This document shows, piece by piece, positions 3,150-19,648 of a stretch of 64,000 nucleotides of DNA. The first letter of the stretch is position 1; each line of letters begins with the position of its first letter. This stretch comes from Candidatus Methanophagales archaeon (GTDB taxonomy: Archaea > Halobacteriota > Syntropharchaeia > Alkanophagales > Methanospirareceae), in NCBI GenBank assembly GCA_030602585.1, contig JAUVZJ010000005.1, positions 973 through 64,972 on the forward strand, in the 5' to 3' direction. A program made the position numbers and the translations under genes. Below the pieces are notes generated by a model. It ran no database searches, had not been told where the DNA came from, and saw only the letters and a list, made by a program, of their open reading frames with translations.

Positions 3150-3164
3150 AGGAGGTAATAAAAA

Positions 3165-4709
3165 ATGTCGACTAGAAAGAAAATTAGCACTGGTATAGCA
3201 ATATGCTTGGTACTGCTGAGCAGTATAATGTTGGGGTGCATAGAACAAGGCACTCAAAACTCAAGACAAACATTAACGATTGGATATGGCAAGGATACAA
3301 ATGTTGCTTCTCCGAAAATGATGGATTTCATGCCAGAGATGATGGTTCTGGAGAGGCTCATAGAATACAAAGATGGTGAAGTACTGCCAAGTCTGGCAAC
3401 TTCGTGGGACATCCAGGATAACAGCAAGACGATAGTTTTTCATTTTAAAAAGGACATTAAATTCTCGGATGGAAGCCCATTTACTGCTGAAGATGTAAAA
3501 TTTACATTCGATAGGCTGAAAGCACTGAAATATTACCATTGGACTGAAGTTGATCGAATAAAAAGTGTAGAAGTGATTGATCCACATACGATAGCTTTTC
3601 ATTACGAGGATGGGAAAGAAGGATACATTGCATTGACTGCTTTTGGGGAATATCATTGCAGTATTATGAGTCCCGTATCGGTTGAACCAAAGGGAGATGT
3701 CAAAGAAAAAATCGTGAATCCCATCGGAACTGGTCCTTGGAAGGTAGACGAGTATGTAAAAGATCAGTACACGATATTTGTGCGGAACGAGATTTATCAT
3801 GGCGAAAAACCAAAATTGGATAAGATTATTGTTAAAGTTATACCAGATGCCGAGACAAGGGTCTTGGCTCTCAGATCGGGCGATGTGGATATGATTGTTG
3901 ACTATTACCATGGTGGATCCAGCTATACTCCTAGAAATTTGTTAGAGCCATTGAAAAGCGAAGGATTCAATGTAATCAAAAATGAGATGCCGATGACCAC
4001 GATAATTAAGTTCAATTACAAAAAAGAGCCGTGGAACGATGTGAGAGTTAGAAAAGCCGTAAACTATGCAATCGAGAAGGATGAGGTTTCGGCACTCTTC
4101 GATAACTGGGTGAATCCGGCAAGACACGGATTGTATAGTGAACAAGGACCCTCCATAAAAGAGGTAAAGGTAGAAGCATATACCAACGATATAAATAAAG
4201 CAAAGACCTTACTTAAGAATGCAGGCTATGAGGAATTGAAAGCAGACCTCGTATTGCAGGGCGAAAATCCCGATGAGGTTAAGCTTTGCGAACTTATACA
4301 GGCACAACTCAAAAAAATTGGCATTCAGGTGAAGCTGAGCGTATTGGAGGGTGGTGCATACAGCGAAAGAAGGAATAAAGGAGATTATGATCTTATGGTA
4401 TATTATATTGGCGGTCCCGAAAGGCGCAGCTACACGAGAACGGACGGCAGGTTTAATCCAAACGCTCCTGAGTTTGGGTACGGGGCATACGATGATCCTG
4501 AGTTGTCAGATGTCCTTGAGAAGGCTGTATCATCTTTCGATGGCAAGGAGCGTCAAGAGGAATTCAAACAGTTTTACCAACTGCTCCACGAGAAGGCAGG
4601 TGTCGTTCCACTCTACTATGATGCAGTGTTTATTGTAGCAGATAAGAAGGTGAAAGGGATCAAATATGTAAGCTCAGAGCCTTGCTTTAGCGGGGTGTGG
4701 ATAGAATGA
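3165..4709 (+). CDS. ABC transporter substrate-binding protein, family 5 (NikA/DppA/OppA-like), lipoprotein
   Basis: Signal peptide with archaeal-type lipobox LLSSIMLGC. Family-5 solute-binding-protein fold motifs (LATSWD, KFSDGSPFTAEDVKFTF). It sits upstream of nikBC-like permeases. Confidence 0.8.
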   Translation: MSTRKKISTGIAICLVLLSSIMLGCIEQGTQNSRQTLTIGYGKDTNVASPKMMDFMPEMMVLERLIEYKDGEVLPSLATSWDIQDNSKTIVFHFKKDIKFSDGSPFTAEDVKFTFDRLKALKYYHWTEVDRIKSVEVIDPHTIAFHYEDGKEGYIALTAFGEYHCSIMSPVSVEPKGDVKEKIVNPIGTGPWKVDEYVKDQYTIFVRNEIYHGEKPKLDKIIVKVIPDAETRVLALRSGDVDMIVDYYHGGSSYTPRNLLEPLKSEGFNVIKNEMPMTTIIKFNYKKEPWNDVRVRKAVNYAIEKDEVSALFDNWVNPARHGLYSEQGPSIKEVKVEAYTNDINKAKTLLKNAGYEELKADLVLQGENPDEVKLCELIQAQLKKIGIQVKLSVLEGGAYSERRNKGDYDLMVYYIGGPERRSYTRTDGRFNPNAPEFGYGAYDDPELSDVLEKAVSSFDGKERQEEFKQFYQLLHEKAGVVPLYYDAVFIVADKKVKGIKYVSSEPCFSGVWIE

Positions 4710-5452
4710 AGGCAAAGGATATTATCAAAGAGGAATGGGATCTGTTAGCTCAGGACTTTGATAACAAGGCAGGACATGGAATACGCACAAAAGAAGAAGA
4801 GGAAGCATGGATAAATCTTTTAACTCGTGCAATCGGGACGAAAAGACTCAAAATATTAGATGTGGGCTGCGGTACCGGTGTGATTGCATTACTTCTTGCA
4901 GAGATGGGTCATGAGGTAACAGGCGTTGATATATCGGAGAGAATGTTGGAACGAGCAAGGGAGAAAGCAAAGAGCATAGAGATTCCAGTGAAGTTCGAGT
5001 TCGGTGATGCAGAAGACCTTCCATTCGATGACGGAAATTTTGATGTTGTAGTTAATAGACATCTCCTTTGGACTATGCTAAACCCTGAGAAAGCAGTAAG
5101 CGAGTGGAAAAGGGTTTTAAAGCCAGAAGGCAGGGTGATAATAATCGATGGTAGCTGGAATGGTCAAGCACTACGCAAACGAGTTTGGCGTTTCCTTGCC
5201 GTGCCTCTGATTTTGATCACAGAGCATCGAATCCCATGGCATGGTCATTACGACAAAGATATGGAGAAGAACTTACCGATGAAGCAGAGAAAACGTCCTC
5301 AGGCAGACATCGAAATTCTTGAGTACTGCGGTTTTGTAGATATTAATATGTCGAAGGTGACAATTCCGATAACCAGAACGTTCATCGAACGGCTGAAGTA
5401 TGGTTACTGGGGAAGTGATGAGTTTTTGCTGAGTGCTACCAAATTGAAATAA
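4697..5452 (+). CDS. class I SAM-dependent methyltransferase with C-terminal His-rich domain, embedded in the nik-like operon
   Basis: ILDVGCGTG, DVVVNRHLLWTM, EWKRVLKPEGRV and a C-terminal HRIPWHGHY. It overlaps the binding-protein stop by 13 bp and ends 3 bp before nikB. Confidence 0.75.
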   Translation: MDRMKAKDIIKEEWDLLAQDFDNKAGHGIRTKEEEEAWINLLTRAIGTKRLKILDVGCGTGVIALLLAEMGHEVTGVDISERMLERAREKAKSIEIPVKFEFGDAEDLPFDDGNFDVVVNRHLLWTMLNPEKAVSEWKRVLKPEGRVIIIDGSWNGQALRKRVWRFLAVPLILITEHRIPWHGHYDKDMEKNLPMKQRKRPQADIEILEYCGFVDINMSKVTIPITRTFIERLKYGYWGSDEFLLSATKLK

Positions 5453-5454
5453 AA

Positions 5455-6402
5455 ATGAAGAAATACATAACAAAAAGATTGCTTTTATTGATCCCGATTA
5501 TGCTTGGGGCTTCTGTACTCTCCTTTTCCATCCTTTATATTGCTCCTGGAGATCCTGCAGAGCTAATGCTTGAGAGGCAGCTGCAGGGTGCTCCAACTAA
5601 AGAACAGATAGATGCGTTCAAAGAGGAGCATGGATTAAACGATCCAATTCCAATCCAGTTTGCAAGATGGCTTTATAAGATATTGCGTGGTGATCTCGGT
5701 ACATCGCTTAGAACCGAAGAGCCAGTACTAAAGGAGTATCTAAATAGATTTCCCGCTTCCCTTGTGCTATTTCTTCTCTCACAGATAATCTCCATCACAA
5801 TAGCGATTCCTTTAGGAATTATATCGGCAGTAAAACACAACTCGAAGGTGGATCATTTTTCCAGGTTTATGGCAATGTTTGGTGCTTCCATGCCAAATTT
5901 TTGGCTGGGCTTGCTTTTAATTCTTTTCTTTGCGGTTTATTTGGATTGGCTTCCAGCCTTTGGTTATGGAGGGATTACGCACATAATCCTTCCAGCAATA
6001 GCCTTGGGGGTATCAGGATGTGCATCGATCATGCGGCTAATGAGGGCAAGTCTGCTCGAGGTTTTACACCTGGATTATATAAGGACTGCGAGAGCAAAGG
6101 GTTTGTGCGAAAAGCTCATTATAGTAAAACATGCTTTAAAAAATGCGTTGATTCCAGTCGTAACAGTTATTGGCTTACATATCAGTCATCTCATTTCAAG
6201 TATGGTGATAGTCGAGGCGATATTTGCATGGCCCGGAGTTGGCAGATTTTTGATTGAATCGATACATGCAAGAGATTTTCCAGTGATTCAAGGCTTTGTT
6301 TTGATTATTGCAATGTTTTTTGTCTTTGCTAATCTGATCGTAGATATTTCGTATACATACTTGGATCCCAGAATACGATATGAGATGGAGAGGATAAAAT
6401 GA
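5455..6402 (+). CDS. nikB: ABC permease NikB/DppB/OppB family
   Basis: 6 TM segments, APGDP N-terminal motif and an EAA-like loop (IRTARAKGL). Confidence 0.85.
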   Translation: MKKYITKRLLLLIPIMLGASVLSFSILYIAPGDPAELMLERQLQGAPTKEQIDAFKEEHGLNDPIPIQFARWLYKILRGDLGTSLRTEEPVLKEYLNRFPASLVLFLLSQIISITIAIPLGIISAVKHNSKVDHFSRFMAMFGASMPNFWLGLLLILFFAVYLDWLPAFGYGGITHIILPAIALGVSGCASIMRLMRASLLEVLHLDYIRTARAKGLCEKLIIVKHALKNALIPVVTVIGLHISHLISSMVIVEAIFAWPGVGRFLIESIHARDFPVIQGFVLIIAMFFVFANLIVDISYTYLDPRIRYEMERIK

Positions 6403-7244
6403 GGCTTAAGATCGTTCAGCAGCTTAAAAAAGATAAAATGGCAGTGATTGGAGTAATAATCATCCTCATTCTTGCCTTCCTTGCGATATTTGCCCCATAC
6501 TTGTCTCTGTATGATCCAATGGAAGTAAACATGGAGAATCGTTTGCTGACCCCAAGTGAAAAACATCCTCTGGGAACTGATCAGTTGGGCAGAGACCTTT
6601 TAAGCAGAATAGTTTATGGGACACGGGTTTCAATAGCTGCAGCGACAATGGCTACCCTTATGATTATGATTTTTGGTGTAACGATAGGGGCAATCGCAGG
6701 ATACTTTGGTGGCGTAGTCGATCAAGCAATAATGCGCGTGGTTGATGTATTATTAGCGTTTCCAAGTTTGATTTTGACAATAGCGATTGCAGGAATCTTG
6801 GGGCCCTCGCTTATGAACCTTATAATTGCTATGACCGCAACTGGGTGGGTAGGTTACTCGAGAATAATTCGTGGTTCTGTTTTGTCTGTAAAAGAAAAAG
6901 AATTCATAGAGGCAGCAAGAGCGATGGGCTGTGGCAATTTGTATATTATTGCTCGTCATATCATACCAAACGTTATTTCTCCAGTGATCGTGATTGCAAC
7001 CATAGATATGGGACACACAATTCTCTCAATCACCGGATTAAGTTTTTTAGGATTGGGAGCACAACCCCCTACTCCAGAATGGGGTGCTATGCTCAATGAT
7101 GGAAAGTCTTTCATGACAACGGCACCACATTTAATGATTTTTCCAGGATTGATGATCATGGTTGTAGTGTTAGCTTTCAACTTCCTGGGTGATGGATTAA
7201 GAGACGCATTGGACCCACGGCTAAGGCAGGTGATGATGAAATAA
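6399..7244 (+). CDS. nikC: ABC permease NikC/DppC/OppC family
   Basis: HPLGTDQLGRD motif and permease TM core. It overlaps nikB by 4 bp. Confidence 0.85.
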   Translation: MRLKIVQQLKKDKMAVIGVIIILILAFLAIFAPYLSLYDPMEVNMENRLLTPSEKHPLGTDQLGRDLLSRIVYGTRVSIAAATMATLMIMIFGVTIGAIAGYFGGVVDQAIMRVVDVLLAFPSLILTIAIAGILGPSLMNLIIAMTATGWVGYSRIIRGSVLSVKEKEFIEAARAMGCGNLYIIARHIIPNVISPVIVIATIDMGHTILSITGLSFLGLGAQPPTPEWGAMLNDGKSFMTTAPHLMIFPGLMIMVVVLAFNFLGDGLRDALDPRLRQVMMK

Positions 7245-7861
7245 AAGATAAAATCAGAGCGTGGTGGGATAACGCACATCAGAACTACGATTGGGTTCAG
7301 GCACATGGTGTTCATTCAGAGCAAGAAAAAGAGATATGGAGAAACGCTTTAACTCAATTACTTAGAATCGAAAAAAAGCTAAAAATACTGGATATAGGCA
7401 CTGGTACTGGTTTTTTGGCATTGTTGCTGGCTGAGATAGGGCATGATGTGACAGGGGCAGATTGGTCAAAGAGTAAACTGGAAAAGGCAAAACAGAAGAT
7501 AAAGAACACCAATATTCCTATAAAGTTTGTGATGGAGGATGCCGAAAAGCTATCCTTCGAGGATAATCTATTTGATGCGGTAGTTAGCAGGCATCTGATT
7601 TGGACATTAGCAAATCCAAAAGCGGCATTTAAAGAATGGGCGAGAGTAACAAAGCCCGGTGGCAAAGTCATAGTAGATGTACCAGAAAAATATTCTCATG
7701 TTGGGAGTCATCACTTTGGAGAGGGAATAGGCAAAGAGTTACCATTTTACAACGGTGCTGATCCAGAGGAGATTGTCAAAATGTTTGAAGATGCAAGACT
7801 GGTGAATGTGTCTGTGCAAAGTTTCAAAAAATTGACTTTGGTGAAAGGGGAAAAATTATGA
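7244..7861 (+). CDS. class I SAM-dependent methyltransferase paralog (start codon uncertain, divergent short C-terminus)
   Basis: Homology (KDKIRAWWDNAHQ...EKEIWRNAL...ILDIGTGTGFLALLLAEIG) starts right at the nikC stop. There is no ATG/GTG between the upstream stop at 7190 and 7415. The ORF track calls TTG 7415-7861. Confidence 0.5.
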   Translation, partial: KDKIRAWWDNAHQNYDWVQAHGVHSEQEKEIWRNALTQLLRIEKKLKILDIGTGTGFLALLLAEIGHDVTGADWSKSKLEKAKQKIKNTNIPIKFVMEDAEKLSFEDNLFDAVVSRHLIWTLANPKAAFKEWARVTKPGGKVIVDVPEKYSHVGSHHFGEGIGKELPFYNGADPEEIVKMFEDARLVNVSVQSFKKLTLVKGEKL

Positions 7862-7903
7862 GTGACAAGTATCACAGAAGAGATTTAACAAGTTGATGGT
7901 ACG

Positions 7904-8830
7904 ATGGAAATGATAATAAACTCTATAATTCGTGCGCTCGAGCTTTGGATATGTGTGCTTCCTTTTACGATCGTTGGTATATTGTTAGCAAGTATTGCCA
8001 TTGAATTCAGAATATTTAATCGATTGTTTCCAGTGCTAAAACCGATATTGCAACGAGCACATTTTAGTCCAGGGTCAGGACTTGCGTTTATAACGGCATT
8101 TGGCTCGCCAATCGCAGCCGTAGCGATGGTCGCTGAACTTTATGCTGAGAAAAAAATAGACCAAAAGGAGGCTTTGTTAGTGACCGTAGCAACTTGGTTT
8201 CCGCAGACAATTTATGAAACCATCGCTTATATCTTCCCTATAATACCATTGCTCGGAATGGTTGGTATTGCATATATATTCTTATTTGTGTTGAATGGAA
8301 TAATAGTAGCAATATTAATGTTTATTATTGGTAGAGCCTTGCTAACCGAGAAGAACTACGAATTTGTTAGGGATAATGAAAAGATAGCCGTTAAAGCAGC
8401 ACTTAAAAGAAGTGTAAAGAGTTCGATAAATCTTTTAAAACGACTTATGATTGTAGGGCTTCCAGTGAGCATTGTAGCAATTGCTCTTATTAATATAGGA
8501 ATATTTGATGCATTGCCTAAATATCTTGGTTGGATGCCGCTACCTCCTGAGGCACTGGCTATAATACCGTTGAAAATTGCAAATCCCATGGCGGCATATA
8601 TCACACTTGCAGATTTAATGAAGACAGGAATTTTGGATTTTAAGTTAGCACTGTTGACTTTACTGATTGCTAGTGCTTTTGTGAGTTTACGATACATTTT
8701 TGCACACAGGCTACCGTATTATTTTGGAATTTTTGGTCCTGTAGTAGGTGTGAAGATAACATCGGTGAGTGCAACATTACGGCTCGGATTGACTGGTTTG
8801 ATGATTTTTGCCTTGATATTGTTTTTATGA
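7904..8830 (+). CDS. polytopic membrane protein (8-9 TM), paralog of 39172-40143, possibly nucleoside-recognition (Gate)-like
   Basis: Hydrophobic profile. It shares architecture and motifs with the ORF between cobN and chlID. The family assignment is tentative. Confidence 0.4.
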   Translation: MEMIINSIIRALELWICVLPFTIVGILLASIAIEFRIFNRLFPVLKPILQRAHFSPGSGLAFITAFGSPIAAVAMVAELYAEKKIDQKEALLVTVATWFPQTIYETIAYIFPIIPLLGMVGIAYIFLFVLNGIIVAILMFIIGRALLTEKNYEFVRDNEKIAVKAALKRSVKSSINLLKRLMIVGLPVSIVAIALINIGIFDALPKYLGWMPLPPEALAIIPLKIANPMAAYITLADLMKTGILDFKLALLTLLIASAFVSLRYIFAHRLPYYFGIFGPVVGVKITSVSATLRLGLTGLMIFALILFL

Positions 8831-8869
8831 AACATCATACCTGAAAATAACGATTGAGGTGAAACTACA

Positions 8870-9191
8870 TTGAAGAAGAGAGCAGAAATCGCAGTAACCG
8901 GAACTGAGCTAAAAGAGCAATACAAGAAGTCCATCGGGAGAACAGTCTTCTTCATCCTCACTCCATCCTTTTTAGTTCTAATCTCTGGCATATCTGCATC
9001 GCTCGGAAGCGCAAACATCCCGATATGGGACACGTATTTTGCATTTCTCCACAAATTCTCCTCCGATCGGATGGTGGCTGTCGGTATTTCCGGGATTGAT
9101 GATCATGATCACGGTGTTAGCCTTCAACTTCCTGGGTGATGGATTAAGAGATGCATTAGACCCACGACTAAGGCAGGTGATGATGAAATGA
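8870..9191 (+). pseudogene. chimeric relic: BtuC/FecCD permease N-terminal stub fused to a copy of the nikC 3' end
   Basis: The N-terminus (AEIAVTGTELKEQYKKSIGRTVFFIL) resembles the BtuC N-terminus at 42396. The last ~100 nt (9089-9191) duplicate nikC 7142-7244 ([30 protein letters not shown] stop). Confidence 0.55.
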
Positions 9192-9381
9192 CCAATCAGT
9201 TGCTAAGCATACATAGCGCCGCTGATCCTATCTTATCTTTTCGCTTTTTCATAGTTGTAAGTAAGAAAAAAATCGAAAATAATATATATATCCTCAACAA
9301 TAAAATCTTAATATGTTTATGTATGAAATAAAATAAAGAGAAAAGCGTGAAAGTGAAAATAAAGAGGGAGGGAATAAAAGA

Positions 9382-12300
9382 ATGTCGAGTAAAAAGAAAA
9401 TTGGTATAGCAATATGTTTGGTATTGTTGAGCAGCATGATGCTGGGGTGTATAGAACGAGAAACTCAGGAATCAGCTACAACCACTCAAGTAGAGCAGGT
9501 ATTGACCCAGGGCTCGTATCGAGACTTTAAAGCTACTGCAGAGGGCAAAAACCTTGTCTTGGAGCCTCTGGTAGGCGTTGATGAATGGGGGAATCCGATT
9601 CCTGGACTTGCCGAGTCGTGGGATGTCTCCCCCGATGGGAAAACTTACACGTTCCATCTGAGAAAAGGCGTTAAGTTTCACGACGGAACGCAGTTCAATG
9701 CTGAAGCTGCAAGATTTTTCATCGAGTGGCAGGGAATGCAGAAGGCGTATGGAAAGTATATGGATCGAACAGAGATCGTAAATGATTATACTGTCCGCGT
9801 TTACCTCGAGAAGTACTATTACGGTTTCTTAGGTGAGTTAGGTCAGCTTATCAGCCCCAATGCGGTGGAGCCGGCAGGGGATGTGAACGGTAAACTGGTT
9901 AACTACATAGGAACAGGTTCTTTCAAGCTTGTGGAATATAAAAAGGATCAGGAAGCCGTCCTCGTAAGGAACGATGACTACTGGGGAAAGAAGCCGAAAC
10001 TTGAGAAGGTCATCTGGAAGGTTGTCCCGGACCCTTACACCCAGGTTTTAGCTCTGAAAGCTGGCGAACTTGACTTGATCGGTGCCGCTGAGCATCATAG
10101 CTGCCTGCCCTATATCGAGATTGCAAAGATGCAGAAAGACCACGATTTTGAGGTTATGTTACATTCCTACGGACGCTATCAGGTCATTGACTTCAATTTT
10201 AAGAAGGAGCCATTCAATGACGTCAGGGTGAGGGAGGCGTTTAACTATGCGATCGACAGGGAACTTATGGTTCATACGCTTTTTGCAGACTTAACCAAGC
10301 CTGCATATTTACTTGGCCCACCCGCGCCCGACTGGGGACCACGTAACATCGAAGGGTATAGATATGACCCCGAGAAGGCGAATCAGCTTCTGGCTGAAGC
10401 AGGCTGGAGAGATACAGACGGTGACGGGATCCTGGACAAAGACGGGAAGCCTTTTACCTGCGAGCTTATAGTTCCGTCCGGCGAGGCGAATGCCGATGTG
10501 GTCGCCGTATTCGTTCAATCCGAGCTTAAAAAAATCGGCGTGCAGATGAAAGTCACCACTATGGAAAGCGGCGCTGCGTGGGACATGCGAAAGAAAGGTG
10601 AAGGGGAATATGATCTGTTCGTGCACCATTGCTGCGGTGCAGCTGCGATGGCATGTCTGGGTATAGGAGGTAAATATCATTCCGCTTATGCCTATGGAAA
10701 AGGAGTTTATCACAACGACGAACTGGATAAACAGATAGAGAAGGCTTTTACTTCCCTCGACAAAACCGAGCGGAGAAAGGCATTCGACCAGATATGGAAG
10801 ATATTGCACGAAGAATCTCCTTCTATACCGCTTTACGACATCACGAAGCCCGTGATATTCAGGAATAACATGCAAGGCTTTAAGTTCGGACCGACCATAT
10901 TCGATATGGATTTAAGTGATGTAGAGGTAGTTGAATATGAGGTGGAGGCTCCCACACCAACAGAGCAGGTGCTAATCCAGGGGGCGTATAAAGACTTTAA
11001 ACAGGCTGTAGAGGGTAGAAACCTTGTATTCGAGACTCTAATGGGCGTAGATGAGCAGGGGAATTCCGTTCCAAAACTTGCCGAATCGTGGGAAATATCT
11101 CCCGATGGGAAAACTTATACATTCCATCTAAGAAAGGGTGTTAAGTTTCATGACAGGACGCCGTTCAACGCATCGGTGGCAAAATTTTCTATTGAATGGT
11201 CTGGAAAAAAGAAGGCATTTGGAAAGTATATTGACTGGATAGAAATAGTGGATGACCATACCCTTCGAGTTTACCTCAAGGAATATTATCGCCCGTTTTT
11301 ACTTGACTTGGCAAGCGAGTTCAGTAGCAAAGTCATCAGCCCCAATGCGGTGGAGCCTGCATGGGATGTGAACGGTAAGCTGGTTAATTATATAGGCACA
11401 GGTCCCTTCAAGCTTGCGGACTATAAAAAGGATCAGGAAGCCGTCCTCGTAAGGAATGATGACTACTGGGGAAAGAAGCCGAAGCTTGAGAAGGTTATCT
11501 GGAAGACCGTCCCGGACCCTTATACTCAGGTTTTAGCGTTGAAAGCCGGCGAACTCGATTTAATCGGAGCTGCTGAGCATCATAGCTCCCTACCCTATAT
11601 CGAGATTGCGGAGTTGCAGAAAGACCCAAATTTAGGGGTCATTTTGCATTCCTACGGACGCTATCAGGTCATCAGATTCAATTGCGAAAAGGAGCCATTC
11701 AATGATGTCAGGGTAAGGAAGGCATGTAACTATGCGATTGACAAGGAACTTATGGTTCATACGCTTTTTGCGGATATTCCGAAGCCGAGTTATCGCATAA
11801 CTGACGCAAGATTCGAGTGGGGTCCTTCTAACATCGACGAGAAGTACTACCGATATGATTTGGATAAGGCGAAAAAGCTTATGACTGAAGCTGGCTGGGC
11901 TGATACTGATGGAGACGGGATTCTGGATAAAGATGGGAAGCATTTTACCTGCGAGCTTATAGTCCCGGCTGGCGAGGCGAATGCCGATGTCGTAGCTCCC
12001 TTTATGCAATCCGAATTAAAGAAACTTGGAATTCAGATGAATATTATCACTCTTGAAAGCGGTGCTGCTGGAAAAAGGCAAAAAGAGGGTAAATATGATT
12101 TGTACGTGCACCATAGCGGGTGTTTACCATCTGTCGCAGGATACATAGAAATAGGCGGAAACTATCACGCAGGTGGATGGCCACATGGTTACCAAAACGA
12201 TACGCTGGACAAACTGATAGAGAAAGCATGGACTACTCCTGATGAAGCTGAGTGGAGAGCGCTCTGCGATCAGATCTGGCAACTATTGCATAAAGAGGCG

Positions 12301-12417
12301 CCCTGTATTCCACTCTACGACATCACGAAGCCGGTGGTATTCAAGAAGAACGTGCACGGCTTTAAGTTCGGACCGACCATGTTCGAGATGGATTTAAGTG
12401 ATGTGGAGATAGTGTAG
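9382..12417 (+). CDS. family-5 ABC substrate-binding lipoprotein made of two tandem complete binding modules (1011 aa)
   Basis: Lipobox LLSSMMLGC. Residues ~30-515 and ~520-1011 are colinear paralogs (AESWDVSPDGKTYTFHLRKGVKFHDGTQFNAEAA vs AESWEISPDGKTYTFHLRKGVKFHDRTPFNASVA; both end FKFGPT.F.MDLSDVE.V). Nucleotide identity between the halves is roughly 85%. Confidence 0.8.
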   Translation: MSSKKKIGIAICLVLLSSMMLGCIERETQESATTTQVEQVLTQGSYRDFKATAEGKNLVLEPLVGVDEWGNPIPGLAESWDVSPDGKTYTFHLRKGVKFHDGTQFNAEAARFFIEWQGMQKAYGKYMDRTEIVNDYTVRVYLEKYYYGFLGELGQLISPNAVEPAGDVNGKLVNYIGTGSFKLVEYKKDQEAVLVRNDDYWGKKPKLEKVIWKVVPDPYTQVLALKAGELDLIGAAEHHSCLPYIEIAKMQKDHDFEVMLHSYGRYQVIDFNFKKEPFNDVRVREAFNYAIDRELMVHTLFADLTKPAYLLGPPAPDWGPRNIEGYRYDPEKANQLLAEAGWRDTDGDGILDKDGKPFTCELIVPSGEANADVVAVFVQSELKKIGVQMKVTTMESGAAWDMRKKGEGEYDLFVHHCCGAAAMACLGIGGKYHSAYAYGKGVYHNDELDKQIEKAFTSLDKTERRKAFDQIWKILHEESPSIPLYDITKPVIFRNNMQGFKFGPTIFDMDLSDVEVVEYEVEAPTPTEQVLIQGAYKDFKQAVEGRNLVFETLMGVDEQGNSVPKLAESWEISPDGKTYTFHLRKGVKFHDRTPFNASVAKFSIEWSGKKKAFGKYIDWIEIVDDHTLRVYLKEYYRPFLLDLASEFSSKVISPNAVEPAWDVNGKLVNYIGTGPFKLADYKKDQEAVLVRNDDYWGKKPKLEKVIWKTVPDPYTQVLALKAGELDLIGAAEHHSSLPYIEIAELQKDPNLGVILHSYGRYQVIRFNCEKEPFNDVRVRKACNYAIDKELMVHTLFADIPKPSYRITDARFEWGPSNIDEKYYRYDLDKAKKLMTEAGWADTDGDGILDKDGKHFTCELIVPAGEANADVVAPFMQSELKKLGIQMNIITLESGAAGKRQKEGKYDLYVHHSGCLPSVAGYIEIGGNYHAGGWPHGYQNDTLDKLIEKAWTTPDEAEWRALCDQIWQLLHKEAPCIPLYDITKPVVFKKNVHGFKFGPTMFEMDLSDVEIV

Positions 12418-12436
12418 ATTCCACGGTGAAGTAGCG

Positions 12437-13387
12437 ATGATAAAGTTCATAGCCAGGAGATTGATGATAGCCGTAGTGGTAATGCTTGGCGTTTCATTAA
12501 TCTCCTTTTCTCTCGTTTTTTTTGCGCCAGGCAATCCTGCTGAGGTCATAATCAGGGCAGAAATTGGAGAAGAACCCACGCTTGAAGAAATCGAATTCTT
12601 TTTTCAAGAACATGGTTTAAAAGCTCCTTTTTTTACACAATGTGCGCAATGGTTGTATATGATTACACATGGCGACCTTGGAACTTCTTTCAGGACTGAA
12701 GAGCCAGTTTTGGTGGAATTTATTGACAGGTTCCCAGCAACCCTTGAACTGGCAGTAGCTGCGATGTTCATAGCGATACTCATATCCATTCCATTGGGAA
12801 TCCTCGCGGCGATGAAGCAAAACTCGGTTTTAGACCATGGCAGCAGGTTTGTAGCGCTGTGGGGTGTATCTATGCCGAATTTCTGGCTGGGCTTACTTTT
12901 AATTCTATTTTTCTCTGTCAGACTCGATTTGTTCCCATGTTTTGGCTATGGAGGCATAGAATATCTGATACTGCCAGCCATTACACTTGGAACCGGTATG
13001 ACCGCATCCCTCATGCGATTGATGCGTGCAAGCATGCTTGAGGTTTTACGCCAGGACTACATTAGAACGGCAAGAGCCAAAGGTTTGATGGAAAGGGTGG
13101 TGATATGGAAGCACGGTTTTAAGAACGCGCTAATTCCAGTAGTAACGGTTATGGGCATGCAAGTTGGTCATTTATTGGCTGGTGCTGTAATAGTCGAGAC
13201 AATATTTGCATGGCCCGGGGTAGGCAAATTTCTGGTTGATGGGATATACGCCAGAGACTATCCCGTAATTCAAGGCTTTATTTTGATTATTGCATTGTTC
13301 TTTGTTTTATCAAATTTGGCTGTGGATATTTTATACACCTATTTAGACCCGAGAATAAGATACGATGTAAAAAAGGGGATGAAATGA
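12437..13387 (+). CDS. nikB: ABC permease NikB/DppB family
   Basis: Paralog of 5455-6402 (FAPGNPAEV, IRTARAKGL). Confidence 0.85.
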   Translation: MIKFIARRLMIAVVVMLGVSLISFSLVFFAPGNPAEVIIRAEIGEEPTLEEIEFFFQEHGLKAPFFTQCAQWLYMITHGDLGTSFRTEEPVLVEFIDRFPATLELAVAAMFIAILISIPLGILAAMKQNSVLDHGSRFVALWGVSMPNFWLGLLLILFFSVRLDLFPCFGYGGIEYLILPAITLGTGMTASLMRLMRASMLEVLRQDYIRTARAKGLMERVVIWKHGFKNALIPVVTVMGMQVGHLLAGAVIVETIFAWPGVGKFLVDGIYARDYPVIQGFILIIALFFVLSNLAVDILYTYLDPRIRYDVKKGMK

Positions 13388-14226
13388 TGTCAATCGTTCA
13401 ACAACTTAAAAAGGATAAAATAGCAATGATTGGAGCGGTAATTATCCTTTTTCTTGCTGGTATTGCAATACTCGCTCCGCATATAACTCCATACGATCCA
13501 ATAGAGTTGGACTTAGAGAACCGCTTATCATCTTCAGATGTGAATCATTTGATGGGTACCGATAACCTTGGTAGAGATGTTTTAAGTAGGGTCATTTACG
13601 GGGCAAGGATTTCGCTGAGTATGGCAACAGTTGTTGTCGTGATTGTTATGCTTTTGGGTATAGCGATGGGAACCATTGCAGGATACCTTGGTGGTATTAT
13701 TGATGGAACAATAATGCGAGTGGTTGATGTTTTATTGGCATTTCCAAATATAATCCTGGCATTAGTTATTGCAGGTATTCTTGGTCCCTCTCTCACCAAT
13801 GTTATGATTGCTCTCAGTGCAATATGGTGGGTAGGTTACGCAAGAATAATTCGTGGTTCTGTTTTGTCTGTGAAGGAAAAAGAGTTTGTTGAGGCTGCGA
13901 GAGCAATGGGCTGCAGCGACACACATATCGCCATTCGCCACATACTGCCAAATGTTCTATCACCAGTAATAGTTCTCGCAACCCTTGATATGGGTCATAT
14001 AATACTTTCAATTGCAGCACTGAGTTTTCTCGGATTGGGTGCGCAACCACCGATACCTGAGTGGGGTACGATGCTCAATGAAGGAAGACCCTTTATGGAG
14101 ACCGCTCCGCATTTAATGATTTTTCCGGGATTGATGATCATGGTCGTAGTGTTAGCTTTCAACTTCCTGGGTGATGGACTGCGGGATGCACTGGATCCGA
14201 GGATGAAGGAGGTGATGATGAAATGA
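13384..14226 (+). CDS. nikC: ABC permease NikC/DppC family
   Basis: Paralog of 6399-7244 (NHLMGTDNLGRD). Overlaps the neighbouring gene by 4 bp. Confidence 0.85.
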   Translation: MMSIVQQLKKDKIAMIGAVIILFLAGIAILAPHITPYDPIELDLENRLSSSDVNHLMGTDNLGRDVLSRVIYGARISLSMATVVVVIVMLLGIAMGTIAGYLGGIIDGTIMRVVDVLLAFPNIILALVIAGILGPSLTNVMIALSAIWWVGYARIIRGSVLSVKEKEFVEAARAMGCSDTHIAIRHILPNVLSPVIVLATLDMGHIILSIAALSFLGLGAQPPIPEWGTMLNEGRPFMETAPHLMIFPGLMIMVVVLAFNFLGDGLRDALDPRMKEVMMK

Positions 14227-15164
14227 CATTGCTAAGTATACAAAATCTAAAAGTCCATTTCCATACCGAAGATGGTGCGGTAAGAGCAGTAAATGATGTA
14301 GATCTGGTGATAGAAGAGGGAGAGACCCTGGGCTTAATCGGGGAAACGGGATGCGGTAAAACTGTATTAGGGCTCTCGATACTGCGTCTGCTCTCTGAGA
14401 ACACAAAGGTAGAGGGTAAAATTTTATACAAGGGAAAAGATTTGCTCAAACTCAATGAGGGTGAGATGAGGAAGATAAGGGGAAAAGAGATAGCGATGAT
14501 ATTTCAAAATCCATTAACCTCGATGAATCCGGTTCTTACAATAGGAACACAAATTTCTGAGCCCTTTGAGTTGCACCAAGGCTTAAAAAAGAAAGATGCA
14601 ATACAAAAAGTGATTGCGATATTAAAGTTGGTGCGAATACCGTCACCATCGGAAAGAATAAATGAATATCCTCATGAGTTCAGTGGTGGAATGAGACAGA
14701 GGGCTATGATTGCGATGGGACTTGCTTGTGAGCCCTCATTAATCCTTGCGGACGAGCCGACCAAGGGTCTGGATGTCACGATACAAGCACAAGTTGTAGA
14801 CCTGATGAAAGAACTAACGACAAACTCCAAAACTTCTATGCTGCTGATAACTCACGATCTTGGTGTTGCAGCCGAGTTATGCGATAACATTGCAGTAATG
14901 TATCCCGGTGAAATCGTCGAATACGCAGATATTAAAGAATTGTTCAAAAACCCTAAACATCCATATACACAGGGTTTTCTTGGTTCTCTTCCAGGCAGAG
15001 GTTTAAAGCCAATGAATGGTATGAGTCCATCTCTAATTGATCTTCCAGAAGGGTGTAAATTCCATCCAAGGTGTCCATTCGCAAGAGAGAGATGCAAGAA
15101 TAAGCGACCAGAAATGGTAGAAATAGGGAAAAAACATTTTGTGAGGTGTTTCTTATATGATTAA
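14223..15164 (+). CDS. nikD: ABC ATPase NikD/DppD/OppD family
   Basis: Walker A GETGCGKT, signature FSGGMRQR, Walker B LILADEP, and a C-terminal oligopeptide-ABC Cys-rich tail. Confidence 0.85.
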   Translation: MTLLSIQNLKVHFHTEDGAVRAVNDVDLVIEEGETLGLIGETGCGKTVLGLSILRLLSENTKVEGKILYKGKDLLKLNEGEMRKIRGKEIAMIFQNPLTSMNPVLTIGTQISEPFELHQGLKKKDAIQKVIAILKLVRIPSPSERINEYPHEFSGGMRQRAMIAMGLACEPSLILADEPTKGLDVTIQAQVVDLMKELTTNSKTSMLLITHDLGVAAELCDNIAVMYPGEIVEYADIKELFKNPKHPYTQGFLGSLPGRGLKPMNGMSPSLIDLPEGCKFHPRCPFARERCKNKRPEMVEIGKKHFVRCFLYD

Positions 15165-16101
15165 AGTTGAAAACTTAAAGAAATATTTTTCAACTGGAAT
15201 GTTCAGCAAAAAATACGTTAGAGCGGTGGATGGCCTTAGTTTTGCGATTGAAAAGGGTGAAACCCTCGGTTTAGTAGGTGAGAGTGGATGTGGAAAAACA
15301 ACAGTTGGCAGATTGATTCTAAGGCTCATCGAGCCCACCGAAGGCAAAATCTTTTTTAAAAACACGAATATTCTCGAACTCAACAAGAAGGATTTAAGAA
15401 AGTTAAGACCCAAAATGCAGATAATATTTCAGGACCCCGATTCATCACTTGACCCAAGAATGAAAATAGGGGAAAGCATTGCAGAGCCTTTAAAACTGTA
15501 CAATATTGTTAGCAAAAATGGAAGAGAAGAAAAAATCTCAGAATTAATAGAGATGGTTGGATTAAATCCGGAACATATAAATCGCTATCCTCATGAACTC
15601 AGCGGTGGACAAAATCAAAGAGCGGTGATTGCAAGGATTCTTGCAATAAACCCTAAGTTCATAGTTGCCGACGAGCCAACATCTTCCTTAGATGTTAATG
15701 TGCAAGCGCAGATGCTCTTTTTACTGAAAAAAGTACGAGAAAAGTTTGGGCTTACCTGTTTATTTATTTCCCATGACCTGGAAGTAATAAAGGTTATGAC
15801 CGATAAAATCGCAGTGATGTATCTTGGAAAGCTGGTCGAAGTCGGAAAAACAAGCGATATATTCAATGGTGCAGTGCACCCGTACACACAGGCATTATTG
15901 TCTGCAATTCCTGTTCTGGACCCAGAGGCGAAAAGGAAAAGAATAGTGTTAGGGGGCGAAATCCCCAATCCAATCAATCCCCCATCTGGCTGTAGCTTCC
16001 ACACCAGGTGCCCTTACCGCGAAAGGATATGTGAGATCGAAGAGCCAATGATGATTGATATTGGAGATGGGCACCAGGTAGCCTGTCACCTAAATCGTTA
16101 A
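15157..16101 (+). CDS. nikE: ABC ATPase NikE/DppF/OppF family
   Basis: Walker A GESGCGKTT, signature LSGGQNQR, Walker B FIVADEP. Confidence 0.85.
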   Translation: MIKVENLKKYFSTGMFSKKYVRAVDGLSFAIEKGETLGLVGESGCGKTTVGRLILRLIEPTEGKIFFKNTNILELNKKDLRKLRPKMQIIFQDPDSSLDPRMKIGESIAEPLKLYNIVSKNGREEKISELIEMVGLNPEHINRYPHELSGGQNQRAVIARILAINPKFIVADEPTSSLDVNVQAQMLFLLKKVREKFGLTCLFISHDLEVIKVMTDKIAVMYLGKLVEVGKTSDIFNGAVHPYTQALLSAIPVLDPEAKRKRIVLGGEIPNPINPPSGCSFHTRCPYRERICEIEEPMMIDIGDGHQVACHLNR

Positions 16102-16126
16102 TACCTTTTCAGCTAATGCTATTATT

Positions 16127-17053
16127 ATGATAGAAGTGGAAAATTTAGTGAAAAAATTTGGAGATGCAACTGCTGTGGATGGGATCAGTTTCAAAGTAAG
16201 AAAAGGAGAGATATTTGGCTTTTTAGGACCCAATGGAGCAGGTAAAACCACAACAATCAATATACTGGTAGGTCTATCGCTTCCAAGTTCTGGAATTGCA
16301 AAAATAGCTGGACTCGACGTGACAAAACATCCAATAGGAATAAGAAAAAGACTTGGCATAGCAGCCCAGGCCGCATACTTCGACCACCATCTGAGCATCA
16401 AAGACAATCTTTTCTACCATGGATTGTTGTATGGTCTGCCCAGAAAAGAGCTCAAAAAAAGAGTGGATACCGCTTTACAGTGGAGCAAACTTGAAAAATA
16501 CAGGAATAAAAAATTTCACCAATTATCTGGTGGAATGCAAAGAAGGCTTGTTGTGGCAAGAGCAATGTTATCAGACCCGGAAATACTCTTATTGGATGAA
16601 CCTACAACCGGTCTTGACCCACAAACCAGAAGGCAGGTCTGGGAATTCATAAAGAATCTGAAAGAGGCAGGGAAAACAGTTCTCCTGACAACCCATTACA
16701 TGGAAGAGGCAGATCTTCTTTGCGACAGGATTGCTATTATTGACCATGGGAGAATTATAGCCAGCGGAACACCGAATGAACTAAAAAAGATGCTGGATAA
16801 AAATATTGTAATTGATATAACTTTAAATCCTGAAGTCGCAGGCGACCACATCAAAAGAGACTTAGACATTATCTCTGGTGTTAATTATGTAAGAATGGAA
16901 AGCAATAGAATAAAGATTGGAGTGGTTGATGATGCAATCGTAGAACAGGTATTAAAAAGCCTTATTATAAGAACTAAAATCAGTGAAATTAATATTATCC
17001 GTCCAACGCTTGATGATGTTTTTCTTCATCTAACTGGTAGGGAGATACGATGA
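16127..17053 (+). CDS. ABC-2 type exporter ATPase (DrrA/CcmA-like)
   Basis: Walker A GPNGAGKTT, signature LSGGMQRR, Walker B LLLDEPTTGLD. Confidence 0.8.
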   Translation: MIEVENLVKKFGDATAVDGISFKVRKGEIFGFLGPNGAGKTTTINILVGLSLPSSGIAKIAGLDVTKHPIGIRKRLGIAAQAAYFDHHLSIKDNLFYHGLLYGLPRKELKKRVDTALQWSKLEKYRNKKFHQLSGGMQRRLVVARAMLSDPEILLLDEPTTGLDPQTRRQVWEFIKNLKEAGKTVLLTTHYMEEADLLCDRIAIIDHGRIIASGTPNELKKMLDKNIVIDITLNPEVAGDHIKRDLDIISGVNYVRMESNRIKIGVVDDAIVEQVLKSLIIRTKISEINIIRPTLDDVFLHLTGREIR

Positions 17054-17054
17054 G

Positions 17055-17819
17055 ATGATTGCAAGAGTGATAAAAGCTATGCTTGCGGTATGGGAACGTG
17101 AAATGCATGAGTACATAAGCAATCTGCATGTAAATGCCATGCGTCTTGCAGTAGAGCCATTGCTATTCATTTTTATCTTTGGAATGGGACTTGGCAAGCG
17201 TGTGGTGATTGGAGACGTAAATTATTTATATTTCCTGGCACCGGGCATACTGTTTATGGTTGCGGTAAACAACAGTTATATGACAATATCAATGAGGCTC
17301 ATGATTGCACGAGACTGGGACAAAACATTGATTACTGCGCTCAGTGCTCCGATAAAACCCTTTGAGATTGTTCTTGGCTATGTGTTTGCAGGTGTAACTC
17401 AAGCACTGGCTGCATGCGCTATCTTTATTGTGTTGATGAATTATTTTTTAGGAATACCCTTTGGTTCCGTTTCCCTGATAGTGTTACTTATCATAGCAAC
17501 AGCCGCATTTTTCTCTTCCCTCGGAGTAGCGATATCCATGGTGCTGGATAATCCACATCATCTAATGGTTGTCACATCGCTTGTTGTCATGCCCATGAGT
17601 TTTTTTTGTGGGATATTTATACCTGTTACTGATCTTCCGAACTGGGTGCAGCCCGTTATAGAGGCAATTCCTCTTACCGTGGCGGTACAAGCAGCCAGAG
17701 CGATAGCATTATCAACGGGCAACCCTTATCTATGGCAAAATCTGGCGTATATTATCGCATTTACAATCGCAGTATTTTTGATAGGGTTGCATCTCTTTAA
17801 GAAAAAAGTAATTACTTGA
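17055..17819 (+). CDS. ABC-2 family permease
   Basis: 6 TM segments with ABC-2 topology. Translationally coupled to the 16127-17053 ATPase. Confidence 0.7.
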   Translation: MIARVIKAMLAVWEREMHEYISNLHVNAMRLAVEPLLFIFIFGMGLGKRVVIGDVNYLYFLAPGILFMVAVNNSYMTISMRLMIARDWDKTLITALSAPIKPFEIVLGYVFAGVTQALAACAIFIVLMNYFLGIPFGSVSLIVLLIIATAAFFSSLGVAISMVLDNPHHLMVVTSLVVMPMSFFCGIFIPVTDLPNWVQPVIEAIPLTVAVQAARAIALSTGNPYLWQNLAYIIAFTIAVFLIGLHLFKKKVIT

Positions 17820-17934: not shown

Positions 17935-19648
17935 CCTGAATTTTAGCGATTATAGGCACCATGTATAAATTTGTCGACACCCATCGCGTTCATAAGCAAT
18001 TCTTGCTTTTTGGTGGCTCTTGTGAGTTTACCTCTCACCTTACCTTTATAGGAATATTCAACAAGAGTGAGATTCTTTAGTTCATCCACTGCCAGATCAA
18101 CCGACATATCTATGTTAGCGTTCTTCAACCGGAATTTGACAATTGTTCTTAGCAGGTATGCAAGAAACACGATTGTGAGATACGCATCAATCCGTTCCGG
18201 GCGCTGATAACGAATGGGTCCTAAAGAGAGTACACCTTTCAAGCATCTGAAGGCTTTTTCGATCTCATCCCGCTGGAAATAAATCGTGAAAACATTTTTT
18301 GCACTTATCCTTTGGTCTGTGCAGAACATTAGAAAACGACCGTCGATGAATTCTTCCTGTTGTACAAGATTATCATCCACCCTAAAACCTCGTCTCCCTC
18401 TTTGTTTGACGATCACAGATGAAATGACACCTTTAAGTTCATTAACACGATTCTTATCGGTTGTTTCACTCAACTCTTTGATCATCATGTCTCGATTTGC
18501 TTTTTCCATCGCTTTTTGTGTGGGATTTGAAACAACAACTATCAAACCGGATTGCCCATAAAGGGTTCCTTTCCTACCTTTAACATACACCATCCCTTCG
18601 GAAGACCGTTTCACGGCATTCTCCCATGTAGAAACATCTTCGTCATTCCAGTAAGATAGTTCACTGAACACTTCGCTGCGGGTTTCAGGACAGCAGCCGA
18701 TGATATGGAAACCTTTTTTCCGGGCTATCTTGATGTTTCGCGTGCTCAACATTCCTCTGTCTACAATCATCGGAATACCACGATATCCCCATGATTCGAG
18801 TGCTGCAAGCATATCCTCCATCGTAAGCGTATCGTTCTTAGAACCGGGGATAGCACCGCATCTAACCGGGAAGCCATGCTCTCCTGAAATTACAAATCCA
18901 ACACCAATTGTCCATTTGCCTCGCTGCGATAGAGTATAGCCTTTCTCTGAATAACTACATCCGTTACCAAAGTAAGTTATCTTTGTAACGTCGTAGAACA
19001 GATGCTTTCTGCTTTCGGAATCAAGCTTTTGACATCTTTCTGCCATTGTCCGCTGTATGGCAAGCCCGACGCCGGATTTAATTCCGTTTTTAACGAAACA
19101 GAGTTGGCTAAGACCGTTGTCCAAATCCACTCTGGTTAGTGTCTGTTGTTTATAGCCTTCCCACTCTGCTAAAGGTGTATTATTTACCCAAGCAGCAGCC
19201 TTTTCCAGAGAAAGTCTATTACATACTTGATTCATTACAAGAGCAAGAACGGGGAAACTTTGAGAAGGACAGTGCTTCTCCAATGCCTTCCGTAGATCAA
19301 TATATTGTGCTGCATCATAATACAGTGCAAGCTTTCCTACAGGGACAGCTCGTTCAATCTCTTCCATTTTATGAGCGGGTGGTATGAGCTTCTCGTTCCC
19401 CTCTTCTCCGGTATCCACACCGAGATACTGAATCACTCTCTGCCTTGTGCTTTTTTCTCTTTGTCCCAATAATTCTCGACTAGATATCTATATTTCCTAC
19501 CTTCCTTTATTTTGGTGCGTATGAATGTCATGGTGCCTAATAGGCACTATGTCATATAAATAGTTTGCGTAATTATCGCTTTATTGTCGATAATAACTCG
19601 GATATGTAGAGATTCAAGGCATGGTGCCTATAAAGCCAAAAATTCAGG
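17935..19648 (-). mobile_element. insertion sequence (~1.71 kb) with ~29-bp imperfect terminal inverted repeats, IS4/IS1634-like
   Basis: Left end cctgaattttagcgattataggcaccatg. The right-end reverse complement is cctgaatttttggctttataggcaccatg. There are subterminal CATGGTGCC repeats and a single 508-aa transposase ORF. No matching target-site duplication (flanks ttataa / atcagt). Confidence 0.75.
17943..19469 (-). CDS. DDE transposase (IS4 superfamily, IS1634-like)
   Basis: 508 aa, fills the IS between the IRs. The family call is from overall size and organisation and is not verified by search. Confidence 0.6.
   Translation of the reverse strand: MGQREKSTRQRVIQYLGVDTGEEGNEKLIPPAHKMEEIERAVPVGKLALYYDAAQYIDLRKALEKHCPSQSFPVLALVMNQVCNRLSLEKAAAWVNNTPLAEWEGYKQQTLTRVDLDNGLSQLCFVKNGIKSGVGLAIQRTMAERCQKLDSESRKHLFYDVTKITYFGNGCSYSEKGYTLSQRGKWTIGVGFVISGEHGFPVRCGAIPGSKNDTLTMEDMLAALESWGYRGIPMIVDRGMLSTRNIKIARKKGFHIIGCCPETRSEVFSELSYWNDEDVSTWENAVKRSSEGMVYVKGRKGTLYGQSGLIVVVSNPTQKAMEKANRDMMIKELSETTDKNRVNELKGVISSVIVKQRGRRGFRVDDNLVQQEEFIDGRFLMFCTDQRISAKNVFTIYFQRDEIEKAFRCLKGVLSLGPIRYQRPERIDAYLTIVFLAYLLRTIVKFRLKNANIDMSVDLAVDELKNLTLVEYSYKGKVRGKLTRATKKQELLMNAMGVDKFIHGAYNR

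Follow-up and report, generated by a model that had tools for sequence, protein, structure and literature searches.

A window of 64,000 nucleotides (nt), the whole stretch of DNA analyzed here, was taken from the Candidatus Methanophagales contig JAUVZJ010000005.1 (assembly GCA_030602585.1, positions 973 to 64,972 of the forward strand). It contains an uninterrupted open reading frame (ORF) for a solute-binding protein (SBP) of family 5 with 1011 amino acids (aa), identical to a product of the same length present in NCBI (P0001). As the original prediction for this DNA had described, the gene codes for one lipoprotein, its lipid anchor being predicted, that bears two full NikA/DppA-like modules. 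The Pfam model PF00496 (SBP_bac_5) matches the protein in two stretches, with 606.5 bits against a gathering cut-off of 32.4, and there is a single leader with a lipobox. This leader has a KKK n-region, a hydrophobic core and an M-L-G-C23 end that can be read in the sequence; it is conserved in orthologues, which keep the M-x-G-C ending. A short tether leads to module 1, and a 10-residue linker joins it to module 2; orthologues carry linkers of similar length, rich in Thr, Pro and Glu. Module 2 has no signal peptide of its own and begins in register with the N-terminus of mature module 1 (EQVLIQGAY versus EQVLTQGSY). The protein terminates after module 2, and nikB is a separate ORF that starts 20 nt past the stop codon. 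The protein is therefore a tandem of two substrate-binding domains (SBDs) on one polypeptide. The coordinates of all features are collected in Table 1.

Comparison of the gene with itself showed a single repeat of about 1470 nt, in which window positions 9492-10931 match 10962-12413. The identity between the halves had been put at about 85% of nucleotides; the measured value was 75.5% over 1468 nt, and 68-70% over about 490 aa at the protein level. Only two local tracts, aa 167-210 and aa 487-517, reach 0.89-0.94. Because the halves differ by 25% in DNA, collapse or expansion of a repeat is unlikely. Moreover, a search of 5.8 billion proteins found, besides the identical NCBI protein, two-module relatives of 1016-1036 aa and 57-84% identity in ENA, JGI and Logan assemblies (orthologues overall measure 1010-1038 aa), and their contigs carry the same continuous gene followed by nikB, nikC, nikD and nikE. 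Together with NCBI, continuous ORFs with the same two modules are present in at least six independent assemblies from four sources. An error of assembly or gene calling, be it a repeat that collapsed or expanded or a false join of two neighboring genes, is also hard to reconcile with a leaderless module 2 in register with module 1, and nothing was found in its favor. We consider such an artefact, of which repeat collapse or expansion had been named as the way the prediction could fail, extremely improbable and in practice excluded.

Structure prediction, proposed as a check along with the original claim, returned two complete bilobal NikA-like folds, and both modules are thus predicted to be complete binding domains. 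In the full-length AlphaFold 2 (AF2) model the mean predicted local distance difference test score (pLDDT) was 84 and the secondary-structure elements matched one to one between the halves. Low confidence was confined to the leader and tether (up to residue 36), residues 308-314, the linker and two loops, one in each module. Module 1 modeled alone with a deeper alignment reached a pLDDT of 91.9 and a predicted template modeling score (pTM) of 0.89. Foldseek placed the models nearest to liganded E. coli NikA (template modeling score, TM, 0.88-0.90; root-mean-square deviation 2.5-2.7 Å) and then to CntA, and module 1 alone gave TM values of 0.89-0.90 to the NikA structure 1zlq. In the same order, TIGR02294 (nickel_nikA) was the top NCBIfam model for both modules and the CntA model NF047575 the second. 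Residue numbers follow E. coli NikA and were taken from the 1zlq sequence as retrieved from the alignments. Common to the modules and to single-module relatives are an EHH motif around NikA Glu221, where both run 2-3 residues longer, a VHH motif at positions 394-396 and a conserved Cys at the position of Gly399; the modules belong to a distinct "EHH" subfamily of the family-5 binding proteins.

The tandem had been explained as a recent duplication within the gene, and this part of the original prediction did not survive. The synonymous divergence (dS, by the Nei-Gojobori method as for all substitution rates given here) between the halves is 0.96 in the window gene, 3.2 in the orthologue P0005 and saturated in P0003. 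In a tree of the separated modules, which like all trees in this work is a neighbor-joining tree only, the modules of five lineages fell into a module-1 clade and a module-2 clade with 100% bootstrap each. Because each module type forms its own clade, the split between them predates the five lineages. A simple recent tandem duplication is ruled out by the dS values, the orthologue clades and the mosaic composition of module 1 described below. As a separate observation, the branching orders of the two clades conflict for P0002-P0005 and the window gene: module 1 of P0005 pairs with P0003 (100%), but its module 2 pairs with P0002 (100%). Such conflicts suggest that lineages have recombined at the linker or that metagenome assemblies are chimeric.

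The longest identical nucleotide runs between modules are 35 nt in the window gene (permutation P 0.011), 58 and 41 nt in P0003 (P <2e-4) and 46 nt in P0267 (P 4e-4), P values that are too optimistic in that the permutation test disregards uneven constraint along the gene. The runs exceed the lengths obtained by permutation, and their positions differ among lineages. Because dS is lower in the window lineage and the long identical runs lie at lineage-specific places, these data suggest, with moderate force, short gene-conversion events between the modules. Fusion alone, joining two old paralogues that exchanged nothing afterwards, fits neither the long runs nor the position of the module bodies as sisters in the tree described below.

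The ratio of nonsynonymous to synonymous rates (dN/dS), taken between orthologues of each module, falls in the range 0.08-0.15 for both, and these values place both modules under purifying selection. This result bears on the possibility that substrate is delivered by one module only. The second would then have no part in transport and might store or buffer metal outside the cell, act as a sensor, or be a copy in decay. In favor of this possibility, the distal module has a linker of 10 residues on which to get past module 1 to the translocator, and module 1 of the window lineage has a 5-residue deletion at the loop of NikA Arg137. Both modules are, however, under the low dN/dS just given, both predicted folds look complete and confident, and lineages as distant as 57% identity have retained the architecture. 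Only a few ATP-binding cassette (ABC) importers are textbook cases of tandem binding domains, GlnPQ being the main example. In GlnPQ of Lactococcus lactis, SBD1 and SBD2 differ in specificity, act independently, are separated by a 14-residue linker and serve one translocator; the fact that both are functional would, by analogy, speak against an idle module here. We regard the one-module explanation as quite improbable.

The halves differ most in the very loop that had been singled out from the sequence, and both quoted loop sequences were found exactly as written, at aa 414-446 and aa 910-940. The loop corresponds to segment 395-420 of E. coli NikA, which carries Trp398, Tyr402 and His416; the suggestion that the loops are potential metal-coordinating sites is thus reasonable, in the sense that they may help to recognize ligand or metal. 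Stand-alone single-module proteins for comparison came from an exhaustive search with HMMER, which covered 1.84 billion cluster representatives. Three recognizable loop classes, A, B and C, were distinguished (consensus sequences in Table 1), and all three occur in single-module proteins, such as L001 and L002 for type B. In sliding windows, residues 398-450 of module 1 share 0.56-0.67 identity with the stand-alone protein P0122 versus 0.32-0.44 with module 2, whereas outside this region modules 1 and 2 reach up to 0.9-1.0. A tree of the loop region (aa 395-452, 65 columns) grouped module 1 with the stand-alone type A proteins P0122, P0125 and P0128 with 83% bootstrap, and with module 2 in 0% of replicates; in the tree of the remaining 485 columns modules 1 and 2 were sisters (91%). 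Module 1 is therefore a mosaic, its body sister to module 2 and its Cys-rich loop akin to stand-alone proteins of other organisms. Either old subtypes were fused and their bodies then homogenized, or an old duplicate gained a foreign loop; under both scenarios the loop has been kept distinct. Other combinations are found in relatives, namely B with C in P0007 and P0283, and A with B and a classical Arg137-type module in P0267. The loop seems to behave as a specificity cassette.

Two functions had been offered for the double protein, raised local capture efficiency and recognition of two ligands. The second fits better, because the loops belong to different old classes that also exist in stand-alone proteins and have been kept distinct despite partial homogenization elsewhere. 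The first amounts to redundant capture: both modules would bind the same metal species and the fusion would merely double the sites per anchor. The 68-70% identity of the modules, the AAEHHS and VHH motifs and the Cys at the Gly399 position common to both, and the one translocator that they serve are all compatible with it. Against it stand the location of the difference in the very segment that holds ligand-contacting residues in E. coli NikA, the placement of the module 1 loop in a separate old class (83% versus 0% bootstrap), its persistence while the remainder of the module shows signs of gene conversion, and the pairing of other loops in the relatives just mentioned. Redundant capture fits less well and is somewhat unlikely.

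The number of modules is not fixed among relatives. The cluster of the window protein at 90% identity includes HJH25685.1, a protein of 1536 aa labeled Methanophagales archaeon with three SBP_bac_5 stretches; the relative P0267 has three. HJH25685.1 is encoded on contig DQIN01000124.1 (L071) of the Methanophagales metagenome-assembled genome GCA_020793595.1, which is 90.2% identical to the window over the two-module gene (window 9347-12410) and 95.0% identical over the following 5.3 kb (window 12412-17712). Opposite window 12410-12412, L071:5422-7006 holds 1585 extra nt, in frame and immediately before the stop codon; the third module encoded there shares 50% identity with P0009, a dockerin-bearing protein, and belongs to the classical Arg137 type. 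A second, independent gain or loss of a whole module was seen in a sister clade. In L003, labeled Ca. Methanoperedens, nikB comes directly after a one-module gene, and L072, 95.7% identical upstream, adds a type C module at the same position. Module number thus changes between near-identical genomes. Multi-module family-5 proteins are otherwise rare among close relatives, with only two others in the best 150 of 72,317 matches: a bacterial protein of 1137 aa made of two Cu_amine_oxidN1 plus SBP_bac_5 units, and P0262, a metagenome surface protein of 4308 aa with six SBP_bac_5 stretches and Big_7 and PKD domains. The architecture of P0262 is unrelated to that of the window gene. Taken together, the fusion is real but old and modular, and not a recent duplication.

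Downstream of the gene lie two permease and two oligo_HPY ATPase genes, which together with the receptor make up an operon of the Nik/Opp/Dpp type; synteny is kept in the orthologous loci L068, L070, L071 and L072, where the ABC-2 pair also always follows nikE. These orthologous loci supplied the context for comparison, since an exact look-up of P0001 in a contig index gave no match. Upstream of orthologues are genes for an S-layer-domain protein, a DUF4198 protein, CbiX and UbiE-type methyltransferases. The CbiX beside the L068 orthologue passes the cut-off for CfbA, the sirohydrochlorin nickelochelatase (146 bits versus 120), and DUF4198 is, we take it, annotated as a periplasmic component of Co/Ni uptake systems. 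The Ftr gene in the window is a marker of methanogen-type one-carbon metabolism. An Rfam scan of the whole window gave no match, hence no riboswitch upstream of the gene. The neighborhood, with nikBCDE and the CfbA, CobN and ChlID chelatases, points to nickel or cobalt as cargo without proving it.

Alternatively, the substrate could be something other than a nickel or cobalt ion or chelate, such as an oligopeptide, an opine-like compound or a metallo-tetrapyrrole (heme, a corrinoid or F430), in which case the His and Cys residues would act as axial ligands to the tetrapyrrole. Family 5 includes peptide and heme binders, the window holds Peripla_BP_2/FecCD systems and tetrapyrrole chelatases in a nearby island, and the modules score under the NikA and CntA cut-offs and miss the canonical chelate-binding residues. 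Nevertheless, sequence and fold comparisons alike consistently rank NikA and CntA above Dpp, Opp and HbpA, and the CfbA gene and the DUF4198 gene, the latter presumably linked to Co/Ni uptake, adjoin orthologues. Another kind of substrate is distinctly unlikely in our judgment. The question of substrate cuts across the architectural readings, and the likelihoods that we attach to the alternatives do not form an exclusive partition.

Other features surround the locus. Remnants of a FecCD-like gene (N-terminal fragment) and of nikC (C-terminal tail) lie just upstream, the latter 90% identical to window 7140-7242, and they mark a past rearrangement. Relative to L071, window 3265-9346 is about 6.1 kb of extra DNA with an SBP body, a methyltransferase, the genes nikB' and nikC' that lack accompanying ATPase genes, a fragment of a methyltransferase and a membrane protein with a Gate domain, and it ends in the FecCD permease and nikC tail remnants. 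The leaders of the single-module SBP gene (3165-4709) and of the double gene are nearly identical (MS[TS][RK]KKI..GIAICLVLLSS[IM]MLGCIE). The stretches that share them, window 3145-3256 and 9361-9467, have 80.5% nucleotide identity, whereas the mature proteins have only about 36%; the second SBP of L068 carries the same leader, which looks like a shared cassette or a recombination handle. Several UbiE/CpaM-like S-adenosylmethionine (SAM) methyltransferase paralogues, some truncated, always accompany the SBP gene, and one of them forms a fusion with CbiX in L072; any connection with the modification of metallophores or of F430 is purely speculative. Further downstream, window 20243-45429 is a metal and tetrapyrrole island that also holds repeated ABC-2 pairs, some fragmentary, and a FecCD permease with its ATPase. 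The two overlapping ORFs of CobN found there may reflect a frameshift, a sequencing error or a genuine split gene.

Table 1. Features of the double SBP gene, its loop classes and its surroundings (window positions unless a locus is named)
Feature	Position	Strand	Basis or remarks
Two-module family-5 solute-binding protein gene, 1011 aa	9382..12417	+	ORF list; stop codon included
Signal peptide with lipobox-like end, MSSKKKIGIAICLVLLSSMMLGC, Cys23; aa 1-23	9382..9450	+	Sequence reading; lipid anchor predicted
Thr/Glu-rich tether from lipobox Cys to module 1, IERETQESATTTQV; aa 24-37, 14 residues	9451..9492	+	pLDDT <50 for residues 16-36
Module 1, predicted complete NikA-like binding domain, type A loop; aa 38-517	9493..10932	+	AF2, Foldseek, TIGR02294
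AAEHHSCLPY motif of module 1, subfamily EHH signature	10084..10113	+	Aligns around E. coli NikA Glu221
Module 1 loop, type A, Cys-rich, VHHCCGAAAMACLGIGGKYHSAYAYGKGVYHND; aa 414-446	10621..10719	+	Aligns to E. coli NikA 395-420
Inter-module linker EYEVEAPTPT; aa 518-527	10933..10962	+	AF2 pLDDT <50 for residues 520-526
Module 2, predicted complete NikA-like binding domain, type B loop; aa 528-1011	10963..12414	+	Full-length AF2, TIGR02294
AAEHHSSLPY motif of module 2	11569..11598	+	Sequence, multiple alignment
Module 2 loop, type B, HHSGCLPSVAGYIEIGGNYHAGGWPHGYQND; aa 910-940	12109..12201	+	Sequence
Loop type A, VHH[CS]CG.A[AT]M[AG]CLG..GKY[HT]			Window module 1; P0122; variants in P0125, P0128
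Loop type B, VHHSGC[LM]P...			Window module 2; L001, L002, P0121, P0123; module 1 of P0007
Loop type C, [VL]HH.G.IP..P.GLL			Module 2 of P0007; P0124, P0129
Second whole-module indel, independent	L003:5780-5920 vs L072:7397-7540		Flanks 95.7% identical
nikB-like permease gene	12437-13387	+	Pfam BPD_transp_1 with BPD_transp_1_N or OppC_N
nikC-like permease gene	13384-14226	+	Pfam BPD_transp_1 with BPD_transp_1_N or OppC_N
nikD-like ATPase gene	14223-15164	+	Pfam ABC_tran and oligo_HPY
nikE-like ATPase gene	15157-16101	+	Pfam ABC_tran and oligo_HPY
ABC-2 (DrrA/DrrB-type) ATPase and permease pair	16127..17819	+	TIGR01188, 332 bits vs cut-off 312
Gene remnants: FecCD-like N-terminal fragment (8870-9050) and nikC C-terminal tail (9087-9189)	8870..9213	+	9087-9189 is 90% identical to 7140-7242
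Methyltransferase paralogues	1095-1559, 1917-2699, 4697-5452, 7415-7861; L071:19-2384; L072:3852-5078		
DDE transposase gene, directly after nik and ABC-2 cluster	17943-19469	-	
144-nt repeat near transposase	19505-19648 and 21576-21719		94% identical
Peripla_BP_2 paralogues, four	23949, 25152, 29771, 33909		
CobN in two overlapping ORFs, 530 and 723 aa	35314-36906, 36903-39074		Jointly cover Pfam CobN-Mg_chel profile
Second Gate-domain protein	39172-40143		
ChlID-type putative cobaltochelatase	40324-42399		
NifH-like protein	44551-45429		Scores under CfbC cut-off

We propose that the gene product is probably a tandem receptor, lipid-anchored by prediction, whose two domains differ in specificity or affinity and feed one NikBCDE translocator. 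In this model, a methanogen- or ANME-type (anaerobic methanotrophic) archaeon would use it as the extracellular receptor of the NikBCDE-type ABC importer coded directly downstream. The single lipobox leader would anchor the protein to the membrane, and a tether of about 14 residues would be followed by two NikA-like domains on a 10-residue flexible linker. The domains, differing mainly in one loop of the second lobe (Cys-rich type A in module 1, type B in module 2), would most likely each capture a different nickel or cobalt species, as free ion or chelate, or the same metal at different affinity. Both would then dock on and deliver to the same NikBC translocator, as the GlnPQ tandem domains do.

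Several findings weigh against this tandem nickel or cobalt receptor, in addition to the limits given above for the neighbor-joining trees and the permutation P values. Both modules fall below the curated cut-off of 393 of TIGR02294 (311.8 bits for module 1 and 303.5 for module 2) and hence are not NikA equivalogs; with the CntA model they score 255.8 and 242.4 bits, under its cut-off of 800. Arg97, Trp100, Arg137, Trp398 and Tyr402 of E. coli NikA, which we take to be its chelate-binding residues and whose positions were verified on the 1zlq sequence, are absent from the modules and the single-module relatives in the multiple alignment: the Arg97/Trp100 loop is deleted, Trp398 and Tyr402 are replaced, and Arg137 is deleted in module 1 and Phe in module 2. 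His433 of module 1 and His929 of module 2 lie opposite NikA His416 in pairwise HMMER alignments, but not in the MAFFT multiple alignment, and some orthologues have Thr or Tyr at the HMMER-aligned position. His416 is the protein ligand to nickel in E. coli NikA, and is called essential in the PDB title of 3qim. In the full-length model both variable loops are of low confidence, and the low pTM of 0.61 gives little confidence in the relative placement of the modules.

The proposed receptor was compared with known systems. E. coli NikA (NikABCDE; PDB 1zlq, 3mvw, 3qim) shares the bilobal family-5 fold, the top family model and the gene order receptor-nikB-nikC-nikD-nikE. It differs in being a single domain free in the periplasm, whereas in the window protein a predicted lipid anchor carries two domains, and the sequence identity is 26%, with both window modules below the curated cut-off and without the chelate residues. 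CntA of Staphylococcus aureus (PDB 5yh8), the second-best family and structure match, is a lipoprotein, as the window protein is predicted to be. It is the receptor for staphylopine-metal complexes and takes up Ni, Co and Zn chelates, and it has a single domain, unlike the window protein. Among the annotated neighbors of the window gene and its orthologues no opine-synthesis gene was found, only UbiE-type methyltransferases. With GlnPQ the window protein shares two binding domains on one polypeptide and a short flexible linker (14 aa in GlnPQ, 10 aa here). In GlnPQ the domains are small, bind amino acids, belong to cluster F and are fused to the membrane domain GlnP, whereas the window protein has family-5 modules of about 480 aa on a separate predicted lipoprotein and its permeases are separate genes, with no fusion to a transmembrane domain. 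Family-5 modules presumably belong to cluster C of the standard structural classification of SBPs. Within a limited body of literature, only work on GlnPQ and OpuA was found for tandem family-5 binding proteins.

Two further nickel systems offer partial parallels. In NikZ of Campylobacter jejuni and NikZ-II of Clostridium carboxidivorans an adjacent His-His pair reaches into the cleft and a variable loop tunes affinity and specificity (bioRxiv 10.1101/2022.10.03.510666). This HH-prong consists of a GHHG motif near the C-terminus and a conserved Arg, with His480/481 in CjNikZ (same source). The likeness is one of logic only, proposed for the EHH and VHH motifs and the variable loop of the window modules. 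In the alignment the His pairs of the window modules fall close to E. coli NikA positions 221 and 395-396, and Phe stands in the NikA Thr490 column; the VHH motif was rejected as an HH-prong, the prong being near the C-terminus, where the modules have no His-His pair. In Helicobacter pylori the paralogous nickel binders NiuB1 and NiuB2, 85% identical and tandem-encoded, serve one transporter with different efficiencies. Unlike the window modules, each is a protein with its own gene and the two are not fused; structurally they fall into another class (class III).

The finding extends the tandem-domain principle to large nickel-type family-5 domains on a separate, predicted lipoprotein. Beside that principle it shows mosaicism of the loop cassettes and natural one-, two- and three-domain variants, which, occurring in nearly identical genomes and with a defined loop, are a ready series for work on domain number, loop type and metal uptake. 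Current understanding is not overturned, and if the domains are redundant the finding shrinks to an unusual domain architecture. A wider proposal, which we put forward tentatively and hold to be possible but doubtful as a whole, is that these proteins are combinatorial arrays in which the same lipid anchor carries one, two or three NikA-like domains. Each domain would bear an interchangeable specificity loop of type A, B, C or the classical Arg137 type, and gain and loss of whole domains at the gene's 3' end would take place on the timescale of strains, while conversion homogenizes the bodies and selection keeps the loops apart. Methyl-coenzyme M reductase, the key enzyme of these archaea, depends on nickel. 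If true, such arrays could let one NikBCDE translocator be retuned quickly for different nickel or cobalt species, which would match the heavy demand of methane-metabolizing archaea for F430 and cobamides.

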